From Candidatus Nomurabacteria bacterium (GTDB lineage: Bacteria; Patescibacteriota; Minisyncoccia; Phycocordibacterales; UBA9973), in NCBI GenBank assembly GCA_016199805.1, contig JACQGC010000013.1:1-51826 (forward strand): a stretch of DNA of 51,826 bases, written 5' to 3'. The notes beneath the pieces are model-generated. The model made no database searches. It had not been told where the DNA came from and saw only the letters and a list, made by a program, of their open reading frames with translations. Positions 46,437 through 49,472 of the stretch are shown here, piece after piece; position 1 is the stretch's first letter, and each line of letters opens with the position of its first letter. The position numbers and the translations under genes are program-made.

Positions 46437-46483
46437 ATTTCTATATCTTTTTTAATCTGCTCAATCAATTCTTCTTCTTTTTT

Positions 46484-47770
46484 TTAACCCTCTATAAACA
46501 CCGGCTTCTTTCTCACCGTCACCGTAATAAAGGCAGAGCCGTTGGTGCAGTTTACTGTGTAAGTGGTGGTGGAAGTGGGACTGATGGTAATAGTGCCGGA
46601 GAGAGCTCCACTAGTACTGAAGTTTACCCCGCCGCAAGATTGACTGCAAGCACCCCAGGCGCTCCAGGCTGTCCAGCCACCATTTACTGTGGTGGAGCAT
46701 TTGGTGCCGTCCCAGCCGGTATTGGCGGCGCAAGTGACAGAAGAACCGGCTATTGTGTTTTGAGCGAGCAAGACAGCATTGTTGTAAAGATAGAAAGTTT
46801 CACCGCCCCATTTAATGGCAAATGGCACACTGCTTCCTGAGTTTCCACTTCCTACGGTTACATTTACAGGTTTGGTTACAGCAGACGTAGCTACGGGGTT
46901 CGTGGTAGTCCATGAGTAGTTTATGTTACAAGTGCTTGCATTTAAGGCAATCACACAAGATGAAACGGCAGGAGTGAGAGTACCAGACATGATGCTTTCT
47001 GAACAAGAAGCGTTGGTTCCGCCATTTGAACCGTTGCAGTTCCAAGTCCAAGCTGAAGCCCCACTCGCGTTGTTGACGCTTGTGCCGACACTACAACTGT
47101 AGTGGGTTGTCGCGCAAGAACCATTGACGGGAGCAGATAAATTCGCGCTGCAAAAATCATCAGAGTGTCCAAAACCGGAACCGGCACAAGTCCAAGACCA
47201 TGGACCGGAGCCGGAGACGGCACTCACATCGCCTGAGTTACAGAGTCCAGAACTTGGAGCAGAAGAATAACTTCCACCGTTGGCCGGACCACAAGAGCCA
47301 CTGTATTGCGGAATACTACAATAATTATTGCAATTTGAAACACCCCAAGCGCCGGAGGCATTTGGGACACAAGAACTGCCACTGCAAGTGTACAAACAAT
47401 CTTGTGGACAATTTCCGGAATTTTCTCCGGCTGAACAAATACCGTCACCACAGACTGTTGCAGAACAAAGGTTTGTACAATTATTTTGACTATTGTCGAC
47501 AGAGGTACAACTTCCAGGGGAACCTTCGGTGTGAACCCCAGGATACTGACATTGTCCTTCGGTATAGCCACAACCAACACCTTCGATACAACCAGAATTA
47601 TGTACACACATAAGTGTTCCACAAACCCCACAATCAAAATTACCCACATCACAGGGAGGAAGAGTAGATCCAAACGCAAAACTTTTTTGTGGCGTAAATA
47701 AAAACAAACTGAAGGAAAAAACGAAAATAATTATAAGGAAAATAATATTTTTGCTGTTTTTAAATTTCAT
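46484..47770 (-). CDS. secreted Cys-rich repeat protein
   Basis: 428 aa. Signal peptide and about 45 Cys. Repeated CG.ANGG...P...LC..G.......GPWSWTC.G and SAWTWNC.G..GG..ASCS modules. Confidence 0.7.
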   Translation of the reverse strand: MKFKNSKNIIFLIIIFVFSFSLFLFTPQKSFAFGSTLPPCDVGNFDCGVCGTLMCVHNSGCIEGVGCGYTEGQCQYPGVHTEGSPGSCTSVDNSQNNCTNLCSATVCGDGICSAGENSGNCPQDCLYTCSGSSCVPNASGAWGVSNCNNYCSIPQYSGSCGPANGGSYSSAPSSGLCNSGDVSAVSGSGPWSWTCAGSGFGHSDDFCSANLSAPVNGSCATTHYSCSVGTSVNNASGASAWTWNCNGSNGGTNASCSESIMSGTLTPAVSSCVIALNASTCNINYSWTTTNPVATSAVTKPVNVTVGSGNSGSSVPFAIKWGGETFYLYNNAVLLAQNTIAGSSVTCAANTGWDGTKCSTTVNGGWTAWSAWGACSQSCGGVNFSTSGALSGTITISPTSTTTYTVNCTNGSAFITVTVRKKPVFIEG

Positions 47771-47775
47771 GAAAA

Positions 47776-48345
47776 TTATTTAATTTGTGATGGGGATTCC
47801 ACCACAATATTGATAATGGCATTTTGATCATCGGCTTTTTTGAAATCTAGAACAGCTTTATAATTGCCTTTTGTTGCCAAGAATTTAAGTTCAGTTTGGT
47901 CTTGTGGTTTAGTTTTAGCGTTTGGCGTAATGACTTCCATAATCCCCCATCCTTTTCTAGTCAAATAGTCTTTAAATACATAATGGGCAGTGTATATATC
48001 ATATTGGCTACTTTCGTATTCCCTGGTGGCTGTCTGATTATTTCCGTCCAGAGAATATTCTGTCTTGTTTGTCGTTGGCACAACTTTTGGTTCCAACATC
48101 AAATCTACAGGGAAACCAGGAGTAGGCAGAACTATGCCGGCCGGATTTTTGTCTACTATATTTGATACGACGACTGGCTTGGTGGTGTTTACCATTCCGT
48201 TGTCCGGCACTGTTTGTTTGGCAGGTTTTTTCTGAATGATTAGTACGCAAACTCCAACAGCAAGCAATAAGATAACTAAAATATAAACAACAACTTTCTT
48301 TGACACACTTGATAGTTTTTTTATCTCTAAATTTTGCTCATCCAT
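47776..48345 (-). CDS. hypothetical membrane-anchored protein
   Basis: 189-aa ORF with one TM segment, 5 nt upstream of the Cys-rich gene. Confidence 0.6.
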   Translation of the reverse strand: MDEQNLEIKKLSSVSKKVVVYILVILLLAVGVCVLIIQKKPAKQTVPDNGMVNTTKPVVVSNIVDKNPAGIVLPTPGFPVDLMLEPKVVPTTNKTEYSLDGNNQTATREYESSQYDIYTAHYVFKDYLTRKGWGIMEVITPNAKTKPQDQTELKFLATKGNYKAVLDFKKADDQNAIINIVVESPSQIK

Positions 48346-48485
48346 AGTTTTTTTTGTTAAAAATAAAAGCTGGTTTAATTATAAATTGGCTGTAGAGATA
48401 ACACAAGGGAAGTGTGGATAACTTTAATAAGACCCTTTAAATATAAGCACAAAAACCATGCAGGTGCTCTTAAATAGTATCATGC

Positions 48486-48514
48486 TTGACAAATGGGTTG
48501 GGCTATGCTATGCT
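48486..48514 (+). promoter_or_regulatory. promoter of GC-rich unit E
   Basis: TTGACA (48486-48491), N17, TGcTATGCT (-10 at 48509-48514). The ~85-nt upstream block is duplicated at 48790-48874. Confidence 0.6.
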
Positions 48515-48534
48515 TTTGTGTAGGAGAGATTGCC

Positions 48535-48666
48535 ATGACTACGTTCATTATTTTAGTGACTATGATTTTCGGAGGGTGGGTATGGGCTCCGCAGCCCAAG
48601 CCAGTGAAGGTGGACTGCCACGCCACAGGAACGTGCGTCAAGCACGTCCCCCCTTCCCAGCAGTAG
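48535..48666 (+). CDS. candidate secreted/membrane micro-protein (43 aa, unit E)
   Basis: AGGAGA then 7 nt then ATG. MTTFIILVTMIFGGWVWAPQPKPVKVDCHATGTCVKHVPPSQQ. Below the ORF-track cutoff. Confidence 0.4.
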   Translation: MTTFIILVTMIFGGWVWAPQPKPVKVDCHATGTCVKHVPPSQQ

Positions 48667-48687
48667 GCACGCGATGCGTGCCATCGA

Positions 48688-48735
48688 GACCGATTTCGCT
48701 TGCTGTCAGCAACGCGGGATCGGTCTTTTTATTTT
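48688..48735 (+). terminator. intrinsic terminator of unit E
   Basis: GACCGAT..CGCTTGCTG-T-CAGCAACGCG..ATCGGTC, followed by TTTTTATTTTT. Confidence 0.65.
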
Positions 48736-48845
48736 TATGCCAAAATTTTTTTAATTAAATTTAATTTTTTAAAAAATTCTCTATCCTCTTTAAAATCCTT
48801 TAAATATAAGCTTAAAAACATATATACACCCTAATAGTATTTGGC

Positions 48846-48874
48846 TTGACAAATAGGTTGGGCTATGCTATACT
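48846..48874 (+). promoter_or_regulatory. promoter of GC-rich unit F
   Basis: TTGACA (48846-48851), N17, TGcTATACT (-10 at 48869-48874). Near-identical to the unit E promoter. Confidence 0.6.
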
Positions 48875-48892
48875 TCTCTACGAGGTAATCAA

Positions 48893-49048
48893 ATGTTCTT
48901 CCTAGCTAAGGTATTCTTTTACGGGGCATTGTATTTTGCCCCCGAGCAGATGGTTGAAGGCGGTCGCGGGTTTCGTACCCCTCCGCCCCAGCATACGCCG
49001 GTGGTTTGTGACACCTGCCGCCCTACGGCTCCCCCGAAACGCTACTAA
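48893..49048 (+). CDS. candidate secreted/membrane micro-protein (51 aa, unit F)
   Basis: GAGGT then 6 nt then ATG. MFFLAKVFFYGALYFAPEQMVEGGRGFRTPPPQHTPVVCDTCRPTAPPKRY. Below the ORF-track cutoff. Confidence 0.4.
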   Translation: MFFLAKVFFYGALYFAPEQMVEGGRGFRTPPPQHTPVVCDTCRPTAPPKRY

Positions 49049-49071
49049 TAAGTTGCGTGCGGGGAAAATCA

Positions 49072-49125
49072 AACCGGAGTTCGTTTGTTGCCATGCAACA
49101 CGACCTCCGGTTTTTCTCTTTTTAT
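49072..49125 (+). terminator. intrinsic terminator of unit F
   Basis: AACCGGAG..TGTTGC-CAT-GCAACA..CTCCGGTT, followed by TTTCTCTTTTT. Confidence 0.65.
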
Positions 49126-49472
49126 ACCAAATTTAAATCTTTTTTAATTTGCTCAATCAACTCTTCTTCTGTGTCAAACTTTTTGAATTCCCGCAAAAAT
49201 TTATTTATCTCAAGTGTCACTTCTTTGCCGTACGCATCACCCACATAACCAATCATATGCGCTTCTATTCTATTATTTGGGCCAATTACAATACCTGCGC
49301 GATAAATTTTTCCTTCCATGGTTGCCGTTCCCGCGTAAACTCCGTCACGTGGAAATTGTTTACCCTGAGCTTGCCGAAGGGCTTCGTCCACTTCAAGATT
49401 CACCGTAGGAAAACCGATTTTCCTGCCGTAGCCGTCTCCTTTTATTACTTTACCGGAAATTATATATAACAT
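49122..49472 (-). CDS. riboflavin kinase (monofunctional, RibF C-domain only)
   Basis: 116 aa. GKVIKGDGYGRKIGFPTVNL and FLREFKKFDTEEELIEQIKKD. Start overlaps the aspS stop. Confidence 0.85.
   Translation of the reverse strand: MLYIISGKVIKGDGYGRKIGFPTVNLEVDEALRQAQGKQFPRDGVYAGTATMEGKIYRAGIVIGPNNRIEAHMIGYVGDAYGKEVTLEINKFLREFKKFDTEEELIEQIKKDLNLV

Follow-up and report, generated by a model that had tools for sequence, protein, structure and literature searches.

Tandem autonomous units with a conserved expression frame and unrelated cargo in a Candidatus Nomurabacteria genome: candidate genes for small membrane peptides

A 51,826-nucleotide stretch of the genome of a Candidatus Nomurabacteria bacterium (contig JACQGC010000013.1 of GenBank assembly GCA_016199805.1; hereafter the window) harbours two small plus-strand units, E (48428-48738) and F (48791-49125; all coordinates refer to the window unless another contig or locus is named). 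In each unit an upstream element and a near-consensus sigma-70 promoter of the extended -10 type are followed by a leader of ~13 nucleotides (nt) bearing a Shine-Dalgarno (SD)-like motif, an orphan open reading frame (ORF) and an intrinsic terminator. The expression frame formed by promoter block and terminator is common to both units, whereas the cargo is not, and the pair resides in an insert between genes that are adjacent in relatives. The interpretation favoured here, to which a probability of roughly 0.58 is attached, is that E and F are tandem autonomous mini-genes most likely encoding small single-pass membrane peptides. A first-pass annotation of the same letters had described a duplicated promoter driving two Cys/Pro-rich micro-ORFs: that observation has been confirmed and so has part of its interpretation, whereas the proposed secretion leaders and the bacteriocin and toxin readings have found no support. 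The units are interesting but unproven as genes, and they are not regarded as bacteriocin or toxin genes.

The duplicated promoter block

Repeat search, shuffles and a promoter scan agree that a block of ~85 nt is present twice, ~360 nt apart, as the first-pass annotation had stated. Two direct-repeat families cover it, one of 43 nt at 88% identity and one of 29 nt at 86%, with offsets of 360 and 363 nt. In the window the 30-nt core CTTGACAAATRGGTTGGGCTATGCTATRCT has exactly two copies, where 100 shuffles lead one to expect none, and the whole genome (753 kb, 19 contigs, 41–42% GC) contains only these two, one at E and one at F. The repeat is real and a chance origin is excluded. A third near-site with five mismatches is located at C7:71867, upstream of an ORF that resembles cold-shock proteins (Csp-type), a label resting on by-eye identification only; the -35 region CTTGACAAATRGGT is common to the promoter upstream of this ORF and to those of E and F.

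A consensus sigma-70 scan places the promoter of E at 48486..48514 (TTGACA, 17-nt spacer, TATGCT) and that of F at 48846..48874 (TTGACA, 17-nt spacer, TATACT), each with a TG extension and with 16 of the 17 spacer positions identical between the two. The hexamers match the sigma-70 consensus at 10/12 positions in E and 11/12 in F, figures that express consensus match only. An upstream element, the 15-mer CCTTTAAATATAAGC, precedes the -35 box by 37 nt in E (48434..48448) and by 34 nt in F (48797..48811), and an A/T block, AATAGTAT, occupies the position of an UP element at 48473..48480 in E and 48833..48840 in F, identical at 8/8 bases within differing flanks. The fully conserved motifs CCTTTAAATATAAGC, AATAGTAT, GCTTGACAAAT and GGTTGGGCTATGCTAT thus alternate with diverged spacers, a pattern which suggests that the duplication is old and that the signals, unlike the cargo, were kept by selection, as opposed to a recent copy. 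Judged from their letters, the promoters belong to the strongest promoter type of the host clade, and both units are probably highly expressed. They point against the flanking minus-strand genes (47776-48345 and ribF, 49122-49472), in keeping with the earlier description.

Homologous terminators around unrelated cargo

Each unit ends in a long GC-rich hairpin followed by a U-run, which bears out the claim that each carries its own terminator. A consensus terminator scan returned none, as it allows only loops of 3–8 nt, and RNAfold was used instead. In E a small GC hairpin (GGCACGC-GAU-GCGUGCC, 48667..48683) directly follows the stop codon, and the terminator proper (48686..48738) comprises an interrupted stem of ~19 bp (48686-48727) and then CUUUUUAUUUUUAU; there is no U-run on the minus strand. 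The terminator of F (49071..49124), detected both as an inverted repeat (I4) and by RNAfold, consists of a stem at 49071-49113 and a U-run that shares positions with the ribF stop codon (49122-49124). Read on the minus strand, the F hairpin folds at -25.6 kcal/mol and is followed by UUUGAUUUU, so that the F terminator is probably bidirectional and also ends the aspS-ribF transcript. The whole units fold with z-scores of -4.4 and -4.7 relative to shuffles.

The two terminators are homologous (z about 9 versus shuffles), a relationship that the first-pass annotation had not noticed. In 7/19 aligned stem pairs both sides are altered and still pair, and the base pairs with such double changes that E and F share are concentrated in the terminator, within a comparison of two sequences only. 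The promoter blocks align with z=18 over composition-preserving shuffles, whereas the bodies, from start site to stop, are alike no more than shuffled sequence (z about 0). The frame has been kept; the cargo either has no common origin or has diverged too far for one to be recognized. These shuffle-scored alignments support the earlier proposal of a conserved 5' module, a non-homologous short cargo and a terminator in each unit. The two peptides are only marginally alike (BLASTP E=0.07; global-alignment p about 0.05), and peptide-level homology was dropped as a candidate explanation, the real frames scoring no better than wrong frames.

The open reading frames and their predicted products

ORF E (48535..48666, with its ATG at 48535) comprises 43 codons and a TAG stop and reads MTTFIILVTMIFGGWVWAPQPKPVKVDCHATGTCVKHVPPSQQ; ORF F (48893-49048; 48893..49051 with a second TAA) comprises 51 codons and a TAA stop and reads MFFLAKVFFYGALYFAPEQMVEGGRGFRTPPPQHTPVVCDTCRPTAPPKRY. 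The peptides of 43 and 51 residues given in the first-pass annotation were correct in both cases. In E an SD-like AGGAG (48522..48526), located where the transcript is predicted to begin, stands 8 nt before the ATG, and in F a GAGG (48882..48885) stands 7 nt before it. The ATG lies 20 nt (E) and 18 nt (F) past the -10 box, leaving a leader of about 13 nt.

Both predicted peptides begin with one hydrophobic segment of transmembrane type, with Kyte-Doolittle means over 15 residues of up to 2.1 (E) and 1.6 (F); at 16–18 residues these segments are short for a membrane span. AlphaFold2, run without an alignment, predicts with moderate confidence that residues 2-16 of E form a helix and that 25-28/34-37 form a hairpin, which Cys28 and Cys34 flank (mean predicted local distance difference test, pLDDT, 75.5); F is modelled as a helix at residues 3-15 with the remainder as coil (pLDDT 64.6). 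The tails are Pro-rich, have a net charge of +2 and carry one Cys pair each, spaced C-x5-C or C-x2-C. The N-terminus of E, MTTF, is uncharged, and a proline directly follows the A|P site at which cleavage had been proposed (Pro19 in E, Pro17 in F); a proline at +1 blocks cleavage by type I signal peptidase. The idea of a cleavable secretion leader is not upheld by these features, and the hydrophobic segments, modelled as helices, read better as N-terminal membrane anchors.

Are the ORFs translated?

Translation of E and F appears probable, if by no means assured. An SD-like motif followed by an ATG arises in a shuffled 40-nt 5' end with a chance of 0.035 for E and 0.010 for F, and the combination is found at a matching distance from the -10 box in both units amid diverged sequence. 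Both frames stay open to just before the terminator (chance about 0.2 each). The GC content at third codon positions (GC3) is 0.70 in E and 0.63 in F against 0.43 in core genes, and in both frames it exceeds that at second positions (GC2). Across the genome, SD-like motifs precede 4–6% of ORFs with a GC3 below 0.55, 19% of those between 0.55 and 0.65 and 5/6 of those at 0.65 or more. This GC3-rich, SD-bearing class includes a receiver-domain protein confirmed by Pfam, a 702-aa ORF with an N-terminal signal-like segment, other cassettes of promoter, SD, ORF and terminator with ORFs of 46–152 aa, and further mini-ORFs with one hydrophobic segment. That the GC-rich character of E and F is common to other small cassettes had escaped the first-pass annotation, and three-periodic Markov coding scores of those cassettes are as low as the scores of E and F. 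Shuffled sequences fold almost as well as the bodies (z -1.9 and -1.7), which are therefore not obviously structured RNAs. The N-terminal helices modelled for both peptides, and the Cys-flanked hairpin modelled for E, also count in favour of translation.

Several observations weigh against a coding function. The attempt to prove coding by codon usage came out ambiguous: on the three-periodic Markov model E scores +0.05 and F -0.04, where real 45-codon windows have 0.21 as their median and 0.0 as their 5th percentile, so that both fall near the bottom of the range of real genes and near the top of that of wrong frames; one antisense frame outscores E. Several frames are open on both strands, and the E and F peptides resemble each other no more than do translations in wrong frames. 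The public protein collection does not contain ORF F, which was apparently not called by gene callers. Neither peptide has a homologue in 60 relatives; F has none among 5.8 billion protein clusters in a word-indexed search, and an exhaustive phmmer search of 1.8 billion representatives with E returned only spurious tandem-repeat proteins, so that conservation is unable to confirm coding. On translation, a 5' part rich in U and a 3' part rich in GC would by themselves partly produce a hydrophobic head and a Pro-rich tail. Moreover, the SD-like motifs may not work by classical pairing, given a 16S rRNA that lacks a canonical anti-SD sequence and core genes that look leaderless. The case for translation is accordingly weaker than the first-pass annotation had assumed.

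Two mini-ORFs elsewhere in the genome, at C18:30837-30983 (minus strand, 48 aa) and C7:32758-32910 (plus strand, 50 aa), are likewise GC3-rich and SD-preceded and possess one hydrophobic segment each. The C18 mini-ORF contains VIFWGGWVAYDQ, which resembles MIFGGWVWAPQ of E with a phmmer E-value of 0.68 that is not significant.

Alternative explanations

A tentative alternative, which commands a minor share of credence, holds that E and F are non-coding small RNAs (sRNAs) of about 215 and 245 nt, with variable bodies that are target-specific and ORFs that are compositional by-products: the U-rich 5' part would yield Phe, Ile, Leu and Val, the GC-rich 3' part Pro, Ala, Gly and Arg, and the frame would do no more than ensure expression and stabilize the 3' end. 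The classic sRNA layout is a strong promoter and a terminator without a downstream gene, and this reading gains from most of the points just listed, namely the ambiguous coding statistics with open frames on both strands, the frame-indifferent peptide similarity, the missing anti-SD sequence alongside leaderless core genes and the absence of ORF F from protein databases. In relatives, too, the same promoter type stands before GC-rich stretches that yielded no long SD-led ORF. Yet no Rfam family is recovered at the gathering score, and even at E<=10 only two chance-level matches appear, both on the wrong strand; the bodies are hardly more structured than shuffles, no structure is common to E and F outside the terminator, and complementarity of either unit to other sites of the genome never extends beyond 13–14 nt. 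It also counts against the sRNA reading that an SD-like motif and an ATG occupy the same position in both units, that each frame spans the whole body and that GC3 exceeds GC2 in both frames, as it does in the GC3-rich protein genes of this genome. It is quite improbable that the units are functionless or nearly so, as decaying remnants of captured cassettes or as promoter–terminator pairs insulating the T-box-controlled aspS-ribF genes from the insert genes and ribE-ribH, in which case convergent transcription and the bidirectional terminator would act on the neighbours. Such a role would suit a terminator that overlaps the ribF stop codon and looks bidirectional, promoters that both oppose read-through from aspS-ribF, bodies with no detectable constraint or homology and units that are unique to this genome. 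Against it, one bidirectional terminator would suffice, and two near-consensus promoters, two SD-led ATG starts and two open frames exceed what insulation needs, while the conserved motifs and diverged spacers of the promoter block argue for long-term selection on the expression of both units.

The reading put forward in the first-pass annotation, that the products are secreted, bacteriocin-like precursors with leaders cleaved at A|P or else type I toxins, is very unlikely. The small size of the peptides, their hydrophobic N-termini and the Cys pair in each tail had invited it; a variable cargo behind a conserved 5' module does resemble fast-evolving secreted peptides, and the neighbouring insert genes encode envelope or secreted proteins. 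E, however, lacks a charged N-region and both peptides have proline at +1. No family match in Pfam or NCBIfam, no transporter and no processing or immunity gene accompanies the units, which undermines a bacteriocin function; the earlier remark that processing and immunity genes are missing next to E and F holds, the neighbours being orphans with no Pfam or NCBIfam family. For a type I toxin one would look for an antisense promoter and a long structured 5' untranslated region, and neither was found: a consensus scan of 48300-49200 detected no minus-strand promoter inside the units, a scan that weak non-consensus sites would escape, and the leader is of ~13 nt. A constitutive consensus promoter of the strongest type would make an unopposed toxin lethal, and no paralogues exist elsewhere in the genome.

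The preferred reading of E and F as mini-genes for membrane peptides can be set out as follows. A unit of ~360 bp would have been duplicated in tandem within the 2.7-kb accessory insert that split the aspS-ribF-ribE-ribH operon; the expression frame would have been preserved while the cargo was replaced or diverged beyond recognition. Each unit would produce an abundant short mRNA that is translated into one peptide. The N-terminal hydrophobic helix would remain uncleaved as a membrane anchor, and the Pro-rich, +2 tail with its Cys pair would face the cytoplasm, as predicted by the positive-inside rule. The peptides would then probably act as small modulators or partners of envelope proteins, for example of the two orphan envelope proteins encoded in the insert.

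The locus and its insert

The units are part of a 2.7-kb insert (46437..49121) between ribF and ribE that also contains two orphan envelope-protein genes. Pfam identifies the flanking minus-strand genes as aspS (class II synthetase), ribF (49122-49472, a riboflavin kinase of 116 aa), riboflavin synthase (ribE) and lumazine synthase (ribH). Synteny of aspS and ribF is maintained in 16/16 genus relatives examined, and in 5/16 ribF is directly followed by ribE-ribH, the arrangement that the insert splits in the window. None of the 16 relatives (0/16) has the insert content or cassettes at the ribF junction; the notion of the ribF|ribE junction as a general variable slot was dropped for this reason, and the stretch is a lineage-specific insert. 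In the same 16 relatives (L062-L077) the identity of aspS to the enzyme of the window falls into classes of 82–86%, 57–61% and 26–39%, while that of the adjacent ribF stays at 54–73% throughout, a pattern which suggests that aspS has been replaced while the pairing of the two genes was conserved.

Divergent from unit E lies a minus-strand gene (47776..48345) for an orphan, N-terminally membrane-anchored protein of 189 aa. It has no match in 100 relatives nor in metagenome, genome and viral collections, apart from one homologue at 53% identity on a 905-bp JGI metagenome contig (L079). On that contig, reading the minus strand from 200 to 1, a divergent TTGACA-17-TAGGCT promoter faces the homologue; downstream of it come a leader of about 45 nt, a GGAGG motif and a gene-called ORF that starts with GTG (MQKTSILNFVALFVAAFTLSAADYDY...), has a hydrophobic N-terminus and is cut by the contig end; this N-terminus looks like a classical Sec signal peptide. 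Orthology of the E promoter with the promoter of this contig was considered and dropped, as the shared bases represent the generic strong-promoter consensus of the clade and also precede unrelated genes. The second envelope gene of the insert (46484..47770, minus strand) encodes a Cys-rich secreted protein of 428 aa which has no Pfam match itself. Its matches are partial and modular, covering 16–64% of its length, and some of the matched proteins are annotated with thrombospondin type-1 (TSP1) repeats (PF00090/PF19028).

Searches for relatives

A search for further copies of the 85-nt block, as advised in the first-pass annotation, yielded none in the genome, in 212 genus genomes or in public genome, metagenome and viral collections. 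In the 212 genus genomes the promoter core found only generic promoter look-alikes that drive other genes, and in species-representative genomes, JGI metagenomes and viral contigs it found nothing. The DNA of the units matched only AT-rich or promoter-consensus fragments in 60 relatives. BLAST comparison of the whole insert with phage and plasmid collections gave no match, nor did viral-contig collections. E and F match nothing in Pfam and NCBIfam, no tRNA or tmRNA was detected in the region and no paralogue of either unit is present among 1786 SD-preceded small ORFs of the genome.

GC-rich stretches of ~280–450 nt lie behind the clade-wide strong promoter, CTTGACAAA-N13-TGCTATRCTT, in two relatives, G118 and G039 (locus L107, about 1533-2000, and locus L002, about 1538-1830, both on the plus strand), and no long SD-led ORF was detected in them. 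Loci of three relatives with the same promoter type have no Rfam match at the gathering score. The stretches at L107 and L002 may be unclassified RNAs.

A third cassette and the upstream element

A composite of CCTTTAAATAT, 30–45 nt and TTGACA occurs three times in this genome and not at all (0) in 120 genus genomes. The third copy, at C1:26005-26063 on the minus strand, is followed by TATACT, AGGAGG and a GC3-rich orphan ORF of 93 aa, and the terminator of this cassette ends in the same UUUUUCUUUUUAU tail. In full, the cassette in this part of C1 (25620-26389, locus L095) consists of the upstream motif TCCTTTAAATATTAG, TTGACA-17-TATACT, AGGAGG, the 93-aa ORF and the terminator. It is divergent from a leaderless gene for a stand-alone TrmB-type winged-helix protein of 84 aa (C1:26135-26389; PF01978, E=1e-16), homologues of which in relatives measure 250–280 aa, and the motif lies 36–38 nt from the -35 boxes of both the cassette and the TrmB-type gene. 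A role of the upstream 15-mer as a clade-wide regulatory site was considered and dropped, as across 400 genomes of the order the 15-mer is no commoner than chance predicts; it is therefore best described, from its distribution, as a species-level element, and a regulatory role for it is speculation.

These features raise a wider possibility, rated as unlikely, that E, F and the C1 cassette are slots of a standardized frame which captures or swaps unrelated GC3-rich ORFs, in an organism with mostly leaderless genes and no canonical anti-SD in its 16S rRNA; the accessory mini-genes would then initiate translation in another way than the core genome does. The frame would combine the species-specific upstream element, the strongest promoter of the clade, an SD-like leader and a shared terminator. 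Joint control of the cassettes through the upstream element is conceivable, with the 84-aa TrmB-type protein as a possible regulator.

Translation initiation in this genome

The 3' tail of the 16S rRNA (genome G000, contig C2, about 134498-135236, minus strand; locus L109, 299-1037) reads GGAAUAAUUCAAUU, where the bacterial consensus reads GGAUCACCUCCUUU. It was delimited with the Rfam SSU model, which scores 522 bits and aligns to its last position, and the canonical anti-SD sequence CCUCC is thus absent at the expected place. An alternative reading of the tail has a short hairpin insert (GGAAU...AUUCC) followed by AGUCCUUUGA.

A survey of 356 well-delimited starts of ORFs of at least 200 aa across the whole genome reveals no SD enrichment in core genes, an SD core being present in 6%, the same as at random ATGs. 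Instead, core-gene starts are characterized by T(-15) G(-14) T(-12) A(-11) ... T(-7), with TATAAT-type words directly before the ATG. With this extended -10 signature right before the start codon, core genes look leaderless. SD-like motifs are concentrated on GC3-rich, mostly accessory ORFs.

Comparison with known systems

Phage morons are autonomous units of promoter, gene and terminator inserted between conserved genes (PMC3594210). E and F likewise couple one small candidate gene each to a promoter and a terminator of its own, separate genes that adjoin in relatives (ribF|ribE) and have a composition foreign to the genome (GC3 0.63–0.70 versus 0.43). Unlike morons, they reside in a bacterial chromosome among housekeeping genes, with no phage genes nearby and no phage, plasmid or viral match; their promoter is the strongest type of the host clade itself, and the two units share one frame while carrying unrelated cargo. 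As they have no phage residence, E and F would count as an analogue of morons and not as members, the closest analogue being a moron-like cassette for a small membrane peptide with a single span.

Small single-pass membrane proteins of Escherichia coli include MgrB, AcrZ and CydX, and the tail of MgrB has two functionally important cysteines. The predicted products of E and F are comparable in their 40–50 residues and in the single predicted hydrophobic helix near the N-terminus followed by a short tail, and E and F would be stand-alone genes of a sort that annotation often misses. They differ in having no sequence similarity to these proteins and no known conserved partner gene, and in tails that are Pro-rich and basic; membership in this group would not be claimed by sequence or location. 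Type I toxin-antitoxin loci such as Hok/Sok, TisB/IstR and Fst/RNAII resemble E and F as intergenic loci in which a small hydrophobic peptide ORF has its own promoter and terminator. In contrast to such loci, no antisense or divergent sRNA promoter was found at E and F, the leader is very short and not long and translation-blocking, the tails are long and Pro-rich and there are no further copies in the genome.

Implications

The combination of leaderless core genes, a 16S rRNA with no canonical anti-SD and SD-like motifs on GC3-rich accessory genes is possibly of more weight than E and F themselves and poses a testable question on how the accessory genes of these bacteria are translated. The units indicate that a strong promoter and a terminator can outlast complete turnover of the cargo between them, which would amount to the logic of phage morons operating in a cellular chromosome, inside a housekeeping operon. 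Genes of this kind are apparently missed by automatic annotation. If E and F are translated, they would add two orphan micro-proteins to the surface and accessory repertoire of an ultra-small symbiotic bacterium.

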